Below are positions 29,406 to 39,895 of a stretch of 47,628 nt of DNA, in pieces. Every line of letters begins with the position of its first letter. Position 1 is the stretch's first letter. The notes under the pieces were generated by a model. The model had not been told where the DNA came from. It searched no databases and saw nothing but the letters and a program-made list of their open reading frames with translations. The translations under genes were made by a program, and so were the position numbers. The DNA lies in contig CAZDZX010000001.1 of the NCBI GenBank assembly GCA_964510005.1, positions 9,926-57,553 of the forward strand, in the 5' to 3' direction. This DNA comes from an uncultured Pirellulaceae bacterium. GTDB taxonomy: Bacteria > Planctomycetota > Planctomycetia > Pirellulales > Pirellulaceae.

Positions 29406-29424
29406 CTAGAAAAGGCAAATCTAG

Positions 29425-29461
29425 AAAAAACAAAAGCACTTGCGATCAGGCAAGTGCTTTT
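29425..29461 (-). terminator. Intrinsic terminator after rpsU
   Basis: AAAAGCACTTGC-GATCAG-GCAAGTGCTTTT inverted repeat with A/T tracts. Confidence 0.8.
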
Positions 29462-29486
29462 AAATGTACTACAGAATGGTTGTCGA

Positions 29487-29687
29487 CTAGCGACGGTTAG
29501 CGAGCATTCGGTTTCGCTTGGATCGACGCTCTGCTCTCAGGCGAGCACGTCGTTTTGTTTCGCTGGGCTTTTCATAGTACTCGCGGCGGCGCATCTCTTT
29601 TTTGATGCCACTTCGCTCGACAAGCTTTCTAAATCTTCTAACGGCTTCCTGAATTGACTCTTTTTCACGTACCAGCAGCTTTACCAT
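29487..29687 (-). CDS. rpsU: 30S ribosomal protein S21
   Basis: [33 protein letters not shown]; GGAG RBS. Confidence 0.98.
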
Positions 29688-29809
29688 TGTTTCTCCAAAC
29701 CTAACTGAATCATCCGCGTTCCTTTATGTAAAAACGAAGAAAATGGCTTCGTGCGCAACGCGAAGCGAACCAAAACAACAACTTCTGCGCAAAACCTCGG
29801 GGGTCGAGG

Positions 29810-29839
29810 ATTATAGAAAGTGATCGATTCCATTGTCCA
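29810..29839 (-). promoter_or_regulatory. Putative sigma70 promoter of rpsU
   Basis: TGGACA-N18-TATAAT on the minus strand. Confidence 0.45.
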
Positions 29840-30008
29840 GTGGAAACCAGTGGAAACCTGTTTTTTGTCCGGATTCCTGCATTTTTCCGGACCGCTACAG
29901 ATTTCCTGGACCACCCGAGGCCTATTGTTGGCTGTTTGTCACGATTGAGCCCTAATTTACCGATAAGACAGCCAATGGCTTCCTCTTTTGGCTTATCTAC
30001 CGGTACCC

Positions 30009-30227
30009 ATGTCCGAATCTGAATCTCGATTGCCTGCAGAAGCCTCCGCCGAGATGGAAGAATTGCTCCAGCAACAGCAAGGGGCTATCGATCAACTGGA
30101 CCTGCTGGATCAGCAAATCTTGGCCGTGATCAAAGAAATTGGGGCCCAGCGTAAAGAAGAAGCCTCATCAGAGGAAAATACCTCGCCAGAGCAGATCGAG
30201 AGCCAATCGCTCCCAAAAGCAGCATAA
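30009..30227 (+). CDS. Small acidic coiled-coil hypothetical protein
   Basis: MSESES...LLQQQQGAIDQLDLLDQQILAVIKE heptads; ends in PKAA. Confidence 0.62.
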   Translation: MSESESRLPAEASAEMEELLQQQQGAIDQLDLLDQQILAVIKEIGAQRKEEASSEENTSPEQIESQSLPKAA

Positions 30228-30979
30228 AGCTGTTCTTCGACGAACCGGTCTGCCTCCAAATTCGAGCCTGCTTAAAGCAACCGAATCAGCTTCACCCCGC
30301 TCAGCTTCACTTCGGCTTCTCCTTCTGAGAAAGAACCGAAGCGAGAACAGGTCCTTCTTTCCTACACGGGGATTTCTACCCAAATCCCTCATCCGGCCTT
30401 CGTGCCCCTTTTCCCCAGAGATTAAGAACTCACTGTCCCCCATTTCCTTTACTACAGGGGCGGTTTGCCAACTTGGAAAAGGTTCTTATTTCCTAAACCC
30501 CAGCTCTCAGGTAAGCCAGCCACTCTCTTTAGGACTTGGTTCCTATTGGCGACCCCACATTTTCCAAGCTGCAAATCAATTCCGGATAGAAAACTAAGGT
30601 CTCACTTCTCTGTGCTGAACGCCTGATAGCAGACCGCGTCGGCAGTAACAGCTCTCACAGAATCGTTCCTCAATTGAATCAACCGTTGCAACCATCATAA
30701 CTTACGCACCGATTTCATCTTTCTTGATCCAGAACTGCTATCGAGTCAACCTGGACTGCTTAAGCCACCGAGATTACCGAAAGCAACTGAAACACTCAGT
30801 CAAATCAATTTGGATGATTTGCAAACTCAGGGCTGATTTCGGAATGGTGGCAAATAAGTTGACAGCCTCATTCCCAGTCGAGTGTTTCAGGAGCTATTGG
30901 GTTGGCAAAGCGAAGAATTCGCCCGACCAGGTGCCACCTGCAAGGTTTGAAACGTCAGTAATATTTTGGAGAGTTTACG

Positions 30980-33058
30980 ATGAAATTGGTTAGAAGTCTG
31001 CTGACTTCTGCAGCATTTATTGCTGCAGCTGTCTCTGCCAGCTTCAGCTGGGGTCAATGTTGTGGTGGCGCGAGCTTCGACACTGTTGGCACAGCAGCCC
31101 CCGCAGCTGTAGTGGCTGATGGTGGAGGCTGTGGCTGTAGCTACACCGTTATGAGAACTGTACGTCGCGTTGTTAACGAGCAACAGCAAGTTACTCGCTA
31201 CCGTACTGTTAACGAAACTGTCTACGACAACGTTGAAGTTCCTGTAACTTCAAATCGTCAAGAGACACGATACAGAACTGAGAACTACACAGTTCAAGTT
31301 CCTGTACAAGAAACAGTCAACCGAACTGAGAACTACACAGTTCAAGTTCCTAAAACGTCTACGGTAATGCGTTCTGAGCGGTACACCGTTCAGGTTCCTG
31401 TTAAGGAAACTCGCTACCGCAACGAAAACTACACTGTTCAGCGACCTGTCTGCAAGACAATCTTCGTTGATCAGCCTTACACTGTTCAGGTTCCTGTCCG
31501 CGAAACTTCTTACCGAACAGAGAACTACACAGTTCAGCGTCCTGTTCGTGAGACAAAGCAGCGTACAGTAAACTACACAGTTCAGCGTCCTGTTACAGAA
31601 ACTAAGCAGCGTACTGTCACTACCATGACTCGCCGCCCTGTTACTGTTCAGAAGACACGAACTGAGAACTACCAAGTTCGCATCCCTGTAACAGAAACTC
31701 GCACTCGTACTGTCAACGAGACGGTTCGCGTTCCTGTAACTGAAACTCGCTACCGCACTGTTACTTCACAGACTCGTGTTCCTTACACTGAGAACGTAGT
31801 TGTTAACGGTGGTTTCTACCGAACTGAGACTCAGGTTATTCCTGGCCAGACTACCACTCGCACTGTTAACGGTGCTGCTGGTGCTGCCAGTGCTGGTGCT
31901 GGAATCCTTGGAGGCGGTGGTCTTCTTGGAAACCGTGGCGGCGGACTGCTGTCTCGTCTTGGTGGCGCTGGTGCTGCTTCAGATTGTGGCTGTGCCGCTC
32001 CTGCTCCTGCAGCTGATTGCGGTTGCTCATCATGTGAAACTACGATCACATGTCGCACTCCTGATCGCACTGTGTGCAAGAAGGTTTGGGTTCCTACTCA
32101 GGAAACTAAGCAAGTTACTAAGTACCGTTGCGAGACTAACTCTCAGCAAGTTCCTTACACTGTAACTAGCCACCGTTGCGAAACTCGCTGCAAGCAGGTT
32201 CCTTACACTGTAACTAGCCATCGTTGCGAAACTCGTACACGTCAGATTCCTTACACGGAAACAACTTACGTTTGCGAGCCAAAGTCACACGTTGTAAACT
32301 ACAACGTTACACGAATGGTTTCTGAGCAGAAGTCACGAGTCGAAAACTACTGCGTAACTCGCATGGTTTGCGAAACTAAGAGCCGCCAGGTTCCAGTTTG
32401 CACCACTCGTATGGTTTCACAAACTCGTAACCGTAAGGTTGCTCAGAAAGTTACAGAGATGGTTGCTGAAACACGGACTCGTCAGGTCCCTTACTGCGTC
32501 ACAAAGATGGTTAATCAGTGCCGTACTCGTCAGGTTCCTCACCAAGTTACAACTACAGTTACTGAGACGCGTCAGCGTCAGGTTCCTGTTCAAGTAACTC
32601 GCATGACTACACAAACTCGTAGTCGTCAGGTTCCTTACACTGTATGTGTTCCTGTAACTTCAACACAGACAGTTCGACGTCCTCGCACTGTCTGCCGACA
32701 AGTTCCTTACACTGTAAACGTTTGCGTTCCACGCACTATCGAAGAGCAAGTTCCTGTAACTGTTCAAGCTGCCCCAGCTGTTTCAATCGACGCTTGCGGA
32801 AACGCAATCGGTGGTGGAGCTATCGTTGACGGTGGCTTCGGTGCTTCTGACGCTGGCTTTGCTGGTGCTGGTGCTGGAATCCTCGGCGGAAACGCTGGCG
32901 GAATCCTCGGTGGTGGCGGCCTCGGTGCTGCTGGTGCTGGTTGCGGATGCGGATCACGCGGTGGCGTCCTTCGCGGACTCATCAGCCGAGTTCGTGGCCT
33001 GTTCGCAGGTTGCGGATGCCGCTCAGCTGCTTCTTCTTGCGGTTGCGGATGCAACTAA
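30980..33058 (+). CDS. Secreted YTV-repeat (planctomycete envelope/structural) protein, Cys- and Gly-rich
   Basis: Signal peptide, many YTVQVPV / QVPYTV repeats with 16-aa period, CGC motifs; extreme GTT/ACT/CGT codon bias suggests very high expression. Confidence 0.88.
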   Translation: MKLVRSLLTSAAFIAAAVSASFSWGQCCGGASFDTVGTAAPAAVVADGGGCGCSYTVMRTVRRVVNEQQQVTRYRTVNETVYDNVEVPVTSNRQETRYRTENYTVQVPVQETVNRTENYTVQVPKTSTVMRSERYTVQVPVKETRYRNENYTVQRPVCKTIFVDQPYTVQVPVRETSYRTENYTVQRPVRETKQRTVNYTVQRPVTETKQRTVTTMTRRPVTVQKTRTENYQVRIPVTETRTRTVNETVRVPVTETRYRTVTSQTRVPYTENVVVNGGFYRTETQVIPGQTTTRTVNGAAGAASAGAGILGGGGLLGNRGGGLLSRLGGAGAASDCGCAAPAPAADCGCSSCETTITCRTPDRTVCKKVWVPTQETKQVTKYRCETNSQQVPYTVTSHRCETRCKQVPYTVTSHRCETRTRQIPYTETTYVCEPKSHVVNYNVTRMVSEQKSRVENYCVTRMVCETKSRQVPVCTTRMVSQTRNRKVAQKVTEMVAETRTRQVPYCVTKMVNQCRTRQVPHQVTTTVTETRQRQVPVQVTRMTTQTRSRQVPYTVCVPVTSTQTVRRPRTVCRQVPYTVNVCVPRTIEEQVPVTVQAAPAVSIDACGNAIGGGAIVDGGFGASDAGFAGAGAGILGGNAGGILGGGGLGAAGAGCGCGSRGGVLRGLISRVRGLFAGCGCRSAASSCGCGCN
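31262..32659 (+). repeat. Two intragenic arrays of 48-bp (16-aa) repeats, 11 units each (31262-31789 and 32132-32659)
   Basis: Units counted in the translation; near-identical DNA duplication GTTCCTTACACTGTAACTAGCCAyCGTTGCGAAACTCG in the second array. Confidence 0.88.
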
Positions 33059-33128: not shown

Positions 33129-33167
33129 AAGCGACTCGGGCATCATCAGCTCGGGTCGCTTTTTTTT
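33129..33167 (+). terminator. Intrinsic terminator after the YTV gene
   Basis: AAGCGACTCGGGC-loop-GCTCGGGTCGCTTTTTTTT. Confidence 0.85.
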
Positions 33168-33180
33168 GTACACGCCCAAA

Positions 33181-34416: not shown

Positions 34417-34772
34417 AATCGACGACTGCGGCAACTGTTGCAACCTCAACGACGCCCGAAATGCCCCACTCGAAAGATACTCACAGCCTCACGCCGCCCC
34501 ATCATGCTCAAATCAGCCGAAAAGTCCTGCTTTTGAACGATAAAAAGCGGTTTAAATCAGAAATTTCCAACCCGCCGAAGGACGCCGACAGGAAGACTAA
34601 ACGAGTGTTTCACTAAAAGTCAGCCCCCGTCGAGCACCTTGGGCATGCTAGCACAGCATCCCGAAACCCAGTAGATCAACCCGCCCTTTCAAGGTGATGT
34701 TTGTTCAGCAACATCGATGGGATAAGCTTGCGGCATTCAATTTCATGCATGCAGGTGCAAAGGAGAGCCCTG

Positions 34773-36023
34773 ATGTCCGAATCCCTCAAATTCATTCACG
34801 CTTCCGATTTCCATTTGGACCGCCCTATCTGCGGCCTGCCGGAAATCCCCAAGCACCTTCTAGAGACGCTGGCCAGCGCTCCCTATGAATCGGCGCAGCG
34901 AGTCTTTGATTTCGCCATGACCGAGCGAGTCGATTTTGTACTCCTCTCTGGCGACCTGTTTGATCACGACTCCGGATCCGCTCGCGCACCGGCCTTCCTC
35001 CTGAACAACTTTCAACGACTGGCAGAAAACGGAACTCACATCTACTGGTGCGCCGGAGAAACCGATCATCCCGATCGCTGGCCCAGCTCAATCCAACTGC
35101 CCGACAACGTTGTTACGTTTTCAACCGGCATCGTGGAAGAAGCCGAACACCTTCGCAATGGAGTTCCCATCGCCACCATCATGGGTGCAGGTTTCGATCC
35201 CAAGCGTAGAAACGGGGATCACTTCGCCGCCGGACACCGACAAAACACCGTGAACATTGCACTCACCTACGGAGAGATGGAATCGGCCAACCTTGTTGCA
35301 GACGGCATCCATTACTGGGCCATGGGTGGTAAACACAAACCAACACGCCTCGACCGCGCCGGCAGCCACATCTCTTGGCCGGGCACGACTCAGGGTCGCA
35401 CTCCCAAAGAATCGGGTCCCCACGGATTCAACTATGTCCGCGTCGATTCCAATGGGAAATTCAAAATCCAAGCCGTTCAATCGGATCGTGTCCGTTGGTT
35501 GCCTCAGAAAATCGCCATCGCGGAAAACGTCAACAAGAAAGAACTCAAAGAAGCACTCACCGATCGGGCCCTGAAAGTCATTGCTGACACGACGGATCAA
35601 ATCATTCTTTCGCGCTGGTTCCTGGCGACCGATGGCGAATTCAATCCTCGCATCCGCAAGGAAGGCTGGGCGGATGAAATTCTTGAATGGCTTCGCGACG
35701 AGTTTGGCCGCGGCGATAAAGGTCTCTGGTCAACAAGTGTAAACATTGAAACCCCCAAATCGCTTCCGATCGAATGGTACGAGGAAGATACGATTTTAGG
35801 CGAGTTTCTTCGAGTCGTTGGCCGCTACCAGAGCGACGAATCACTCAAAATCAATCTCCACGATTACATGCCCCACTCCGTCAAAGGAGACGTGATGGCT
35901 TCGGCCGCTCACATCTCTCGGGATCGCCGAGAAGCAATCCTGAGAAAATCCGCGATGATCGGCGTCAACTACTTGGCAGCCCACAAAGATATCAAAGAAG
36001 TCAACGCGGACACGACCCTCTAA
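34773..36023 (+). CDS. yhaO: YhaO/SbcD/Mre11-like metallophosphoesterase with degenerate motifs
   Basis: KFIHASDFHLD, LLSGDLFD and PGTTQGR; directly upstream of a YhaN-like ATPase. Confidence 0.85.
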   Translation: MSESLKFIHASDFHLDRPICGLPEIPKHLLETLASAPYESAQRVFDFAMTERVDFVLLSGDLFDHDSGSARAPAFLLNNFQRLAENGTHIYWCAGETDHPDRWPSSIQLPDNVVTFSTGIVEEAEHLRNGVPIATIMGAGFDPKRRNGDHFAAGHRQNTVNIALTYGEMESANLVADGIHYWAMGGKHKPTRLDRAGSHISWPGTTQGRTPKESGPHGFNYVRVDSNGKFKIQAVQSDRVRWLPQKIAIAENVNKKELKEALTDRALKVIADTTDQIILSRWFLATDGEFNPRIRKEGWADEILEWLRDEFGRGDKGLWSTSVNIETPKSLPIEWYEEDTILGEFLRVVGRYQSDESLKINLHDYMPHSVKGDVMASAAHISRDRREAILRKSAMIGVNYLAAHKDIKEVNADTTL

Positions 36024-36082
36024 CAAACACACTCGGCTGAGTTCAATGATTGATCAGCCATCACCAGACAAAGGAGTTTGCG

Positions 36083-39000
36083 GTGAAAATCAATAATTTG
36101 CACGTCGATGGATTTGGCGTCTGGAAAGGTCTCGATGTCGACAACCTTTCCAGCGACATGACGGTCTTTCATGGCTACAACGAAGCCGGCAAAACAACGC
36201 TGATGCAATTCGTTCGCAGCATGATGTTCGGCTTTGACAACGGACGTCTCGCCAAATACACACCTCCGGTTTACGGGGGCCTTGCCGGCGGAGCGATGGA
36301 CATCACCATGCCCAACGGCGCTTGGGAAGTGGTTCGCAATGTAGACCCCAACCGTCTTGCCGACCCCATTGGTGACTTGACGGTAACCGACCAGCAGGAT
36401 GGTTCGGTCCACGGAAACGCTCAATTGACCTCGCTGTTGACGGATGTCGACGAGTCAATTTTCAATAACGTTTTCGCGATTGGCCTGCGAGAGATCCAAG
36501 AGCTAAGCGCACTCAACAGCACCGCTGCGTCGAATTACCTCTATCGCCTCACTAGCGGTTTGGATCGCGTTTCGCTGATCGACGTGATGCGCGACTTGAA
36601 CCAGCGCCGGGAATCCATTTGGTCAGCCGATCCCAAAGATTCATCGCGCCTCCAAGTCCTCACCGATCGCCGACAGAAATTACTACGCGAGATCGACGAC
36701 CTCAGACAGAAATCGAAGCGCTGGTCACGCATTGCTTCCGAAACAACGGATGTAGACAACCAACTTTCCGATCTGCGCGACCAGTTGAAGCAAGCAGAAA
36801 AAGAATGTCGCATGATCGAGATCGCGACCCAAATTTCTGATCGATGGCAAAACAGAATCGTTGTCCGCGATCAGATCGCCGCCTACAGCGGCCTTCCTGC
36901 CGAACGCGATCTCAACGTTTCACGTCTGGACGAACTCAACGAAAAAATCGCCCTGCAACGGGAGCGTATCGACCAAACTCGTGGTCAGCGAAAGCAAATC
37001 AAAAGCGAAGCCCTCTCGCTGCCGATCAACCGCGAATTGTGGGCTCAAAAGGCTCGCATCGAAGCCATCAGCGAACACGCCCCATGGGTTCAATCCCTCG
37101 AGCGGCAACATATCAATATCCAAGAGGAAATTGATCGAATCGAAAACACACTCGTTGGCGAAGTCGATGGACTGGGACTCAAAATCCGCGCTCGCGACGT
37201 CAACAAACTGGGCTCCGGTGGATTCCACCAACTCGAAGAGGCCGGTAAAAAGCTAACGGACTCGCAAGACGATCTCGAACAAGTCCGGCAGGACCTCGAG
37301 AAATCCGAATTCGATTTGGGCCAGCACAGTCAGCGACTGACCAAATCACAAGGCGAAACCGGTAGCGGCGAAACACTGGAAGAGACCAGTGCCTACGTCA
37401 ATCGACTGAAGCGCCGTGTTGAACTGGAACAAAAGATCGAAAAACTTACCCGTACTCAGGGCGATCTCGATCGCGACATCGACTCGGTGGTCAGCAATCA
37501 AGTCATCCCCGTCGAGAAACTCTCGATCATTGGCGTGGTTTTCATTCTGGGATTTGTATTCCTCTTCCTTGGTCTGATCTCGATGCTGACCGGAAGTGCA
37601 AACTTCGCCAACATCAGCCAGAGTTCAGGACTACTGTTTTTGATCATTGGCTTCGTTGGCTTGCTGTTGTCACTGGCCATCAAGTACCACTGTGAACATC
37701 TCGCTAAAGAAGAACTGGACGACTATCGCCATCAAGTCGACATCGTTCGTCAACAACTTAAGCGGGCGAAACTCGAACGCAACGAAATCGAAAAGCATTT
37801 GCCCGCCCACGCGATCACTCAGTACGACATGGCTTTGGAAGAAGCTCAAGGCAAACTGAATCGTTTGACGGATCTCGTGCCATTGCAAAACCGAGTCGAA
37901 AACACCCGTATGGGAATGGACGACCTGCGTCGACGACTGGCCGTTCAACAACGATCCGTTGAATCCGCTTCAAAGATCTGGCAACAGACACTCAAAGCAT
38001 CCGGCTTGCCTGTAGAACTGGAACCCCATCAACTTCGCGAGATCATGAATCGTAGAGATCGGATCGCCGGTTACAACACTCGACTGGAACAACTGCGGTC
38101 CGAACAAGAACAGAAAGTTCGCGAGATCAACACGATTCGACAACGAATCGATTCCACGATCCACGAAACCGGAATCCTATCTGGAACAACACACGGTTTA
38201 CATTCGTCAACTTCTGGGCATTCTCTGGATCCTCTGCACTCCACGACAAATCCACTTCACACCACGGATCCTTTGCTTTCGTCCACCACGACATTGCATT
38301 CAACGGATACGACCCGCCAACAATCGGGAAAGAAAGGCCGCAAGAAAGACCGTTCGATTACGCGTGGAAACACGACGATCCACGAAACTCGCCGCGGAAA
38401 TCGCAACGACGGATCAACAGTCGGCGAAACATCAATGCACCGCCCTGATGGAACAAGAGTTGATGAGCACCGAACATCGACATCAACAACCAGGACAAAC
38501 TATCGGGAGACCACACATCTCACCAATGGGATGAATGTGAGTGATCGCCTGACGATGGTCACCCGAGCAATCAACGAGCAGCGAGTTCATGTTAAAGCTC
38601 GCAAAGAGCTCGCCAATCGCTACAAATCTTTGCGGACTCGATTGAATAAATCGAAACGCGAGCTTGATCGTCAACTGGGGTTCAAGCAACGTTTGCTTTC
38701 GACCGTGGGTGCAGAATCCGAAGCGGCGTTTCGCGAAATGGCTGCCAAGCACACCCGTCGACGCAAATTGAAGCGTAAAGAAGCGGACCTAAACGACCAA
38801 ATCCAATTGGCCACCGGCAAGCACTTTACCAACGAAGACATGGGGAACATTTTCTCCAACTTCGGAACCAGCGGATTGGAAAAGCACTGGGAGCAATTGC
38901 AATTGGCCATCGACGAGGCTCGCGAAGAGCAAAATCGACTGATGCAACTTCGGGGCGAATTGATGCAAGAAGTCAAAGCCCTCGGCGAAGACTCGCGACT

Positions 39001-39895
39001 GGATGTGGTCCGTTTGGAACTGAATTCGATCGAAGCCGAAATCAGCAAACTCAAAACCAAATGGCAGGAGTTGGGCGCCAGTTCTCAGATGTTGGAGATG
39101 ATTCGTGAGTCCTACGAATCGAAGCGACAACCAGAGACACTGAAAGAGGCATCGAACTATCTGACCAAACTCAGCGAAGGAAAATACGTTCGGATCTGGA
39201 CTCGCATGACCGGCGAAGAGCTTTTGGTCGACAATGCGAACGATGAAACTCTACCGGTAGAAAACCTCAGCCGCGGTACTCGCGAAGCCGTATTCTTGAG
39301 TTTGCGACTGGCCTTGGTGGGTGCTTATGCCCGTCGCGGCGCCGTGGTTCCGATGGTATTGGACGATGTCTTGGTTAACTTCGATGGCCAACGAGCTCGT
39401 TCGGCCGCCGAAGTCCTGTATGACTTCTCAAGAAACGGTTACCAGATTCTGATGTTTACATGTCACGATCACATTCGCGACATTTTCCATTCACTGGGCG
39501 CCGACGTCAGAATCTTGCCAGCTCACAAGGACGTATTTGATTCGTCAGCCAAACCAATTCGCTACGGCGATGAAGAACAGCGATACGATTACCCGTCCCA
39601 CATTGAGGAACCGCAACCTACATTCGCCCCACCGGTTCAGTTTGAAACAACCCAAGAGCCGTACCGGATTCCGGTTGAATACGTGGCTCCCATGTCACAG
39701 ATCGATCTAGCTGCGGGCGCATTTGATGAAGCACTCCGTTACGAACTTTCGGCAGTGGCTTCGGATCAACAGCGAGAACATCAACTTCGCAGCGACATGG
39801 TTTTCATTCCAACGACGCACCCCACGCATGAAATCATGCTCTCGGGTAACGATCCGATTTGGAGAGAAACAAGCCCCGTGATTCACCACACCTAA
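36083..39895 (+). CDS. YhaN-like (AAA_27) SMC/Rad50-type ATPase with central TM hairpin
   Basis: GTG start after AAGGAG; KINNLHVDGFG, Walker A GYNEAGKTT, coiled coils, two TMs, signature LSRGTRE, Walker B VLDDVLVNFD and FTCH. Confidence 0.92.
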   Translation: MKINNLHVDGFGVWKGLDVDNLSSDMTVFHGYNEAGKTTLMQFVRSMMFGFDNGRLAKYTPPVYGGLAGGAMDITMPNGAWEVVRNVDPNRLADPIGDLTVTDQQDGSVHGNAQLTSLLTDVDESIFNNVFAIGLREIQELSALNSTAASNYLYRLTSGLDRVSLIDVMRDLNQRRESIWSADPKDSSRLQVLTDRRQKLLREIDDLRQKSKRWSRIASETTDVDNQLSDLRDQLKQAEKECRMIEIATQISDRWQNRIVVRDQIAAYSGLPAERDLNVSRLDELNEKIALQRERIDQTRGQRKQIKSEALSLPINRELWAQKARIEAISEHAPWVQSLERQHINIQEEIDRIENTLVGEVDGLGLKIRARDVNKLGSGGFHQLEEAGKKLTDSQDDLEQVRQDLEKSEFDLGQHSQRLTKSQGETGSGETLEETSAYVNRLKRRVELEQKIEKLTRTQGDLDRDIDSVVSNQVIPVEKLSIIGVVFILGFVFLFLGLISMLTGSANFANISQSSGLLFLIIGFVGLLLSLAIKYHCEHLAKEELDDYRHQVDIVRQQLKRAKLERNEIEKHLPAHAITQYDMALEEAQGKLNRLTDLVPLQNRVENTRMGMDDLRRRLAVQQRSVESASKIWQQTLKASGLPVELEPHQLREIMNRRDRIAGYNTRLEQLRSEQEQKVREINTIRQRIDSTIHETGILSGTTHGLHSSTSGHSLDPLHSTTNPLHTTDPLLSSTTTLHSTDTTRQQSGKKGRKKDRSITRGNTTIHETRRGNRNDGSTVGETSMHRPDGTRVDEHRTSTSTTRTNYRETTHLTNGMNVSDRLTMVTRAINEQRVHVKARKELANRYKSLRTRLNKSKRELDRQLGFKQRLLSTVGAESEAAFREMAAKHTRRRKLKRKEADLNDQIQLATGKHFTNEDMGNIFSNFGTSGLEKHWEQLQLAIDEAREEQNRLMQLRGELMQEVKALGEDSRLDVVRLELNSIEAEISKLKTKWQELGASSQMLEMIRESYESKRQPETLKEASNYLTKLSEGKYVRIWTRMTGEELLVDNANDETLPVENLSRGTREAVFLSLRLALVGAYARRGAVVPMVLDDVLVNFDGQRARSAAEVLYDFSRNGYQILMFTCHDHIRDIFHSLGADVRILPAHKDVFDSSAKPIRYGDEEQRYDYPSHIEEPQPTFAPPVQFETTQEPYRIPVEYVAPMSQIDLAAGAFDEALRYELSAVASDQQREHQLRSDMVFIPTTHPTHEIMLSGNDPIWRETSPVIHHT

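Follow-up and report, generated by a model that had tools for sequence, protein, structure and literature searches.

The window analysed here, a stretch of 47,628 nucleotides, carries a gene for a 692-residue YTV-family protein whose two repetitive arms are predicted to pair with each other as one long antiparallel hairpin (Table 1). Support for this hairpin reading is good, and we hold it highly probable that residue i faces residue 650-i. The protein is probably secreted and, as a predicted two-arm antiparallel ribbon, would be cross-linked into the protein wall via outward-facing cysteines. Sequence comparison supplies the family assignment, the 16-residue period, the matched arms, the mirrored indels, the mirror co-variation and the parity of prolines and cysteines, while the hairpin itself is a prediction. 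This architecture is apparently unpublished. As the initial annotation had supposed, no description of a YTV fold was located in the searched literature, and its novelty may yet be affected by other papers, their supplements or models in AlphaFold DB. A table in section 10 of PMC8078820 lists, without describing it there, a trRosetta model for one YTV protein; the deposited model may show the hairpin.

Table 1. Features of the YTV locus, in positions of the window.
Feature	Position	Strand	Details
Conserved non-coding leader, candidate cis-regulatory RNA	30904..30958	+	4-bp and 6-bp helices, then GAAACGTCAG
GGAG ribosome-binding site	30968..30971	+	from sequence; kept in the upstream alignment
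YTV-family gene, 692 aa	30980..33058	+	ORF; PF07639
Likely Sec signal peptide, residues 1-25	30980..31054	+	by eye: basic N-terminus, then hydrophobic core; orthologues share it
N-terminal head	31055..31141	+	Gly/Ala-rich, 4 Cys (CC, CGC)
Arm 1, residues 55-280	31142..31819	+	11 regular units, 31262-31789
Hairpin tip, residues 281-369	31820..32086	+	inner strands 291-296 and 354-359, Gly/Ala/Cys-rich loop between
Arm 2, residues 370-595	32087..32764	+	11 regular units, 32132-32659; 13 Cys
C-terminal tail	32765..33055	+	Gly/Ala-rich, 8 Cys, ends in CGCGCN
Intrinsic-terminator-like stem	33129..33171	+	13-bp stem with T run

Pfam search matched PF07639 (YTV) to nine stretches of the protein (E = 4.9e-47, 158 bits against a cut-off of 21), and the same family was found in all 57 members of the YTV alignment; NCBIfam gave no family for the 692-residue protein. 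With 33 Cys and 34 Pro it is cysteine-rich like the YTV family, and its arms are net basic (K+R 73, D+E 35). Named relatives of the locus belong to Pirellulaceae (Pirellulales/Planctomycetota), several labelled Mariniblastus sp., and one of the latter nests among same-genus sequences in the tree. Carriers of matching sequence were labelled as marine or algal metagenomes and came from two studies, one possibly the source. The YTV family was present in 21 of 21 related genomes and in none of 14 controls. Judged by its sequence, the protein is an ordinary member of this known family from a Pirellulaceae planctomycete. Published passages describe YTV proteins as major components of SDS-resistant walls (PMC5287468, PMC8567305), in agreement with the initial annotation, which had noted their report from the Rhodopirellula envelope fraction; wall location, cysteine content and restriction to Planctomycetia are covered in parts of PMC12673574, PMC8567305, PMC5287468 and PMC3343278. 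One YTV protein appears in the essential set of P. limnophila as given in a passage of PMC10632474, and how the protein part of the planctomycete wall is composed and bears load has been a question ever since the wall studies of the 1980s to which PMC8567305 refers. YTV wall proteins of R. baltica, G. obscuriglobus, T. immobilis and P. limnophila share with ours PF07639, cysteine richness and Pirellulaceae relatives, and to the eye the N-terminus of ours is typical of a signal peptide; the published passages on them contain no two-arm hairpin, paired indels or RNA leader of the kind reported here.

An assembly artefact can be dismissed for the repeat gene. Exact DNA repeats within the arms reach at most 29 nt, and an independent contig from another sample spans 31522-32928 with five differing letters and no gap, a support that is partial in that no single piece spans the complete gene. 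Where other samples differ by in-frame length changes, the listed cases affect the Gly-rich tip and tail (31820-32086, 32765-33055) and never the arms.

In each half of the protein, autocorrelation had its peaks at lags of 16, 32 and 48, with lag-16 identities of 0.48 and 0.49 and at most 0.25 at other lags. The initial annotation had described residues 95-270 and 385-560 as eleven 16-residue units each; re-segmentation agreed and found both blocks free of gaps, although the region that is predicted to pair is larger, with 55-280 set against 595-370 (i + j = 650). The two arms do differ in their units, as had been noted, yet these are variants of one repeat rather than separate kinds; Pfam YTV matches fall in both arms. 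Mirroring of irregular units, also claimed earlier, is real but uneven: 5/7 (deviation 13.5/7.1) and 8/4 (8.7/8.0) deviate together, 3/9 is weak (3.2/1.7), and the mirror pairs 7/5 and 11/1 do not match in deviation. Within the 692-residue protein, the unit-level mirror correlation of r = 0.39 is not significant alone (permutation p = 0.11), and the residue-level correlation at i + j = 650 is r = 0.20 (p = 0.009). A Mantel test of unit similarity gave r = 0.50 (p = 0.0012) for mirror order and r = 0.03 (p = 0.43) for parallel order. P166 within DQPY and A488 within KVAQ are both present as described, but they are not direct partners, their sites lying four rungs apart. The extra arm-1 proline and the lost arm-2 proline occur together in 10 of 19 long Mariniblastus-like orthologues, the other nine having neither; because this split follows one clade, it counts as about one event.

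Equality of arm lengths among homologues had been set beforehand as a test of the hairpin. We measured arm 1 from Y55 (outer) to Y280 (inner), which gives 225, and arm 2 from W370 to P584, which gives 214, hence an offset of 11. In the same-genus set (57 of 72 genomes matched, two genes cut by contig ends left out and four truncated loci skipped), all 56 proteins, the 692-residue protein included, had this offset at arm lengths ranging from 147 to 259; regular-expression anchoring returned 11 in 55 of them, and locus L050 also gave 11 with profile anchors. The wider set added 160 further loci and used length-blind profile anchors; 19 of its 162 distinct cores fell below the anchor threshold and were dropped. 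Of the 143 anchored homologues that were left, 132 shared the offset of 11 and 11 were unequal, so that the expected equality holds for most of these homologues and fails for a few; shuffles gave a mean of 16.7 and a maximum of 32. Tip length varied freely while the arm offset stayed constant, with an anchor spacing across the tip of 90 in the 692-residue protein, 54-133 in homologues and 55 in 41 of the 56 proteins of the genus. Parsimony on the tree placed about 34 paired length changes among the 132 matched proteins and 11 changes, one apiece, on the unequal ones. Exact DNA repeats of at least 50 nt were found in 7 of the 11 unequal and 13 of the 132 matched homologues (p = 1.3e-5), and assembly error is a plausible cause of unequal arms in these seven; the remaining four carry no long exact DNA repeats to account for them. 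In a second subfamily one offset was shared by 26 of 30 proteins, a partial count in that the regular expression caught 30 of 120, and two of three long paralogues with 14-residue units had equal arms, the third being unequal.

Each arm was also aligned separately to that of a longer close relative with one gap, which yielded 70 comparisons, partly non-independent. Gaps lay at mirror positions within 8 residues in 46 of the 70. Indels other than whole units were at mirror positions in 21 of 22 cases, compared with 25 of 48 for whole-unit indels, whose gaps are hard to place. All 13 two-residue indels fell within 7 residues of the mirror site, and they are spread over about eight sites, 9 to 150 residues out. 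For example, both arms of the 692-residue protein lack two residues, at 9/9 counted from the tip anchors, and both arms of its sister L039 (sister support 99) lack two at 18/19. The matched two-residue deletions lie about 60-110 nt from the tip anchors on both sides, which excludes a single DNA event. A length change in one arm thus appears to be kept only with an equal mirror change in the other, much as in an RNA stem.

Co-variation (MI-APC) was calculated in four gap-free length classes that hold 81 of the 132 sequences, with small effective numbers (7-19 per class). The pooled scores, which rank offsets and are not p-values, peaked at -2, 0 and +2 from the anchor mirror (10.1, 12.6 and 12.1), which is the pattern of an antiparallel pair in the register i + j = 650. 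Elsewhere the next score was 4.4, one-unit shifts reached 1.9 and 0.2, and the best parallel offset 3.1. The anti-diagonal signal that the initial annotation had anticipated is therefore found at the mirror register and not for parallel or solenoid pairing, and no strong second band was seen in the same four length classes. AlphaFold results, which we read as secondary structure and not as contacts, likewise gave the two long strands expected, whose limits and breaks were symmetric about 650 in both runs. For residues 52-598 (57 sequences) the model was of modest confidence (pLDDT 61.7, pTM 0.21). For residues 205-445 (103 sequences), strands at 206-287 and 363-444 were mostly at pLDDT 92-98, and further strands at 291-296 and 354-359 carry the register on into the tip; the alignment behind this fragment was cut symmetrically from matched proteins, which biases the model toward the register.

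These results bear heavily on a reading in which each arm forms a beta-solenoid of its own, or is disordered and of low complexity, with duplication at the DNA level as the source of the symmetry. 16-residue tandem repeats often form solenoids, and the unequal arms of the 11 homologues would fit. Against it, parallel co-variation is missing, the mirror two-residue deletions cannot come from one DNA event, the AlphaFold strands are uninterrupted, and only 52 glycines occur in about 48,000 arm positions, so that the arms would contain few turns. We regard this reading as largely refuted and extremely improbable. A different question is whether the same register is formed between molecules, so that chains would make swapped dimers or polymerise into an endless beta-ribbon. 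Neither the co-variation nor the matched lengths and mirrored indels can separate within-chain from between-chain pairing, and the tip loop of the 692-residue protein is long, flexible and of low model confidence. However, the register extends into the tip (291-296 with 354-359), and the fixed 55-residue anchor spacing of most homologues in the genus suits a turn of the same chain, which makes pairing between molecules quite improbable. A complex prediction with four copies of the inner fragment scored 0.01 and carries no weight either way.

The composition of the arms is consistent with the hairpin. Across the 132 matched proteins, every arm proline (2609/2609) and 2908 of 3533 arm cysteines lay at an even distance from the anchors, a parity that the even period explains in part and to which off-phase prolines conform too. 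The 692-residue protein has all of its 28 arm prolines and 14 arm cysteines at even positions and no Cys opposite a Cys. Direct cross-strand Cys-Cys pairs numbered 4 in the matched set versus 62 expected; with such pairs avoided, the disulfides of YTV ribbons are likely to be intermolecular. Arm prolines of the matched proteins stood mostly opposite Met, Tyr or Trp. In beta-sheets prolines occupy non-hydrogen-bonded sites, and those of the arms would therefore interrupt both free edges of a ribbon.

Free edges matter for a further alternative, namely that hairpins serve as subunits set side by side in a beta-barrel tube or sheet, such as a fibre, stalk or pore. An isolated two-stranded ribbon leaves two of them, and the weak structural look-alikes come mostly from oligomeric barrels, where they form long hairpins (phi29 collar, Z 3.4; lysenin pore, Z 3.9). 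The barrel hairpins matched (phi29 collar 6qz9, P68 tail 6iac, lysenin and anthrax PA pore stems) have a similar extended antiparallel geometry, but they are several times shorter and propped by barrel neighbours, and a likeness at Z 2.5-3.9 over 69-122 aligned residues, with rmsd 6-13 A and 5-11% identity, is geometric only. Every Z is below 4 and under the typical chance best, hydrogen bonding at the edges would be disrupted by the prolines that recur on both strands at intervals of about 16 residues, and a strong second co-variation band is lacking. Both faces carry polar or charged residues, which argues against a membrane pore. We consider side-by-side assembly unlikely. No fold match at Z>=5 was obtained among 48,161 chains, an absence that is no proof of a new fold; the best Foldseek hit had E = 4e-4 at TM 0.06, and a PDB sequence search returned one weak match (E = 0.003). 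We located no solved precedent for a lone 226-pair ribbon in the searches made. Three Planctomycetota clusters without PF07639 in the ESM Atlas, at 0.84-0.86, are leads only.

Returning to the single-chain ribbon, we propose that the chain would be exported by Sec through its putative signal peptide and that zipping would start at the conserved GG / PG...P / W-x-P tip. The two arms would then close into an antiparallel two-stranded beta-ribbon of about 226 pairs, which at 3.3-3.4 A per pair is predicted to measure roughly 75 nm if fully extended, within the 60-80 nm that the initial annotation had estimated; twist may shorten it. One face of the ribbon would present V, R, K, E and Y and the other T, P, C and M. 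The regularly spaced prolines, by breaking both free edges, may limit sheet or amyloid growth, and disulfides from the arm cysteines (arm 2) together with 12 in head and tail would join ribbons into an SDS-resistant mesh. On balance, we lean toward a disulfide-linked wall strut as the role of the ribbon. Repeat number sets the length of the molecule and, as suggested earlier, may set a fibre length, or else an envelope spacing. Strict pairing gives every protein a defined length, which would also suit a rod acting as a fixed-length spacer or ruler for an envelope distance, e.g. periplasm width or mesh size. Arms of 147 to 259 residues within one genus, related proteins with shorter and longer arms in the source genome and the lack of an evident membrane anchor argue against a ruler, and we give it little credence. 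The strut reading, in turn, may be part of a broader picture that we put forward tentatively and regard as rather doubtful as a whole: YTV proteins and Pfam-less relatives would form a class of single-chain beta-ribbons (about 40-130 nm) with RNA-stem-like evolution (paired indels, a complementary residue code and proline parity), woven by disulfides into a protein sacculus whose mesh is set by ribbon length, with an uncatalogued RNA leader tuning output. A two-stranded ribbon that is stable over more than 200 pairs would represent a new type of structure as well as a nanometre rod that can be tuned. The defined register makes testable the rod length of each orthologue, the effect of paired versus unpaired deletions and the choice of cysteines that cross-link.

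The parallel with articulins and alveolins drawn in the initial annotation survives as an analogy only. According to passages of PMC6212826, these epiplastins share the head/medial/tail layout, a V- and P-rich medial region with VPV and a scaffold role, and their medial region is predicted to contain unusually long beta-strands, matched by the AlphaFold strands here. However, the same source locates them beneath the plasma membrane, at its inner face, defines them by acid-base dyads and describes them as generally without fixed repeats, whereas the 692-residue protein has an exact 16-residue period, is rich in Thr, Arg and Cys and is likely secreted. Epiplastins occur in organisms that build an epiplast, whereas our protein comes from a planctomycete genome, and no alveolin or articulin Pfam family was listed for it at E<=0.1.

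Other proteins show related patterns. A 915-residue ORF of the same genome (G000:C43:2581-5325, + strand), with no significant Pfam match, has all 53 prolines between residues 165 and 878 in even positions. Its inner anchors are DEGKW and KWQP (sum 1042), its arms are about 335 residues long, and mirror positions near 360-395 and 645-685 carry irregular inserts; it appears to follow the same two-arm design. L006 (G000:C266, ORF 112-2031, - strand) is a weak YTV paralogue that has almost no Cys and whose arms are shorter; from residue 70 to 384, 24 of its 25 prolines are even. In L007 (G000:C111, ORF 748-2022, + strand) a short YTV-like block comes after a hydrophobic segment in the centre, and the ORF runs into an N gap. 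A pair-propensity scan for the hairpin axis in two paralogues gave no clear peak. The long YTV paralogues of same-genus genomes (L076, L077 and L078) are built of 14-residue units, and their arms are 256 to 402 residues long.

Upstream of the gene, 45 distinct regions selected by a short motif share a conserved stretch of about 80 nt that precedes the start codon. The candidate RNA has an invariant GACCAG bulge (30925-30930) flanked by two helices (10 pairs). In these helices 93.6% of cells pair, and one pair changes from C-G to U-A in 15 sequences. The covariation score was reached by none of 500 shuffles, a result inflated by relatedness and obtained with a structure derived from the same alignment. 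The leader alone folded no better than shuffles (z = -0.15), and Rfam had nothing near gathering score. A model of the leader had a single match in the source genome and 10 in 74 other loci, each directly before a YTV gene (one in training, two weak); in an order-level sample it matched 2 of 121 genomes, and the second match adjoins its YTV gene. Overall, wherever the leader was seen in the loci and genomes scanned it preceded a YTV gene, mostly within the Mariniblastus-like clade. A reading of the leader as a sigma-54 promoter was dropped: the spacer is variable, and G-U pairs favour a + strand RNA. Among the matches listed, no carrier was an RNA dataset.

Codon use of the YTV gene deviated from that of five neighbour genes (GC3 0.38 vs 0.54-0.65; T3 0.42 vs 0.20-0.28), which is possibly a sign of high expression. 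The neighbours are poorly conserved, with the upstream flippase-like gene found in 3 of 80 loci and the downstream RlmM-like gene in 1 of 80, and hence offer no operon argument. About 1.5 kb upstream of the leader (29406-30903) is without a recognised gene. An ORF at 30139-30597, with no Pfam or NCBIfam family, looks spurious. On the - strand of this stretch lie a stem resembling a terminator (29431-29462) and a strong sigma-70-like site (29810-29839). Downstream, 34701-39895 (+ strand) encodes an SbcD/Mre11-like phosphoesterase followed by an AAA_27/SMC-like ATPase, an unrelated neighbour.
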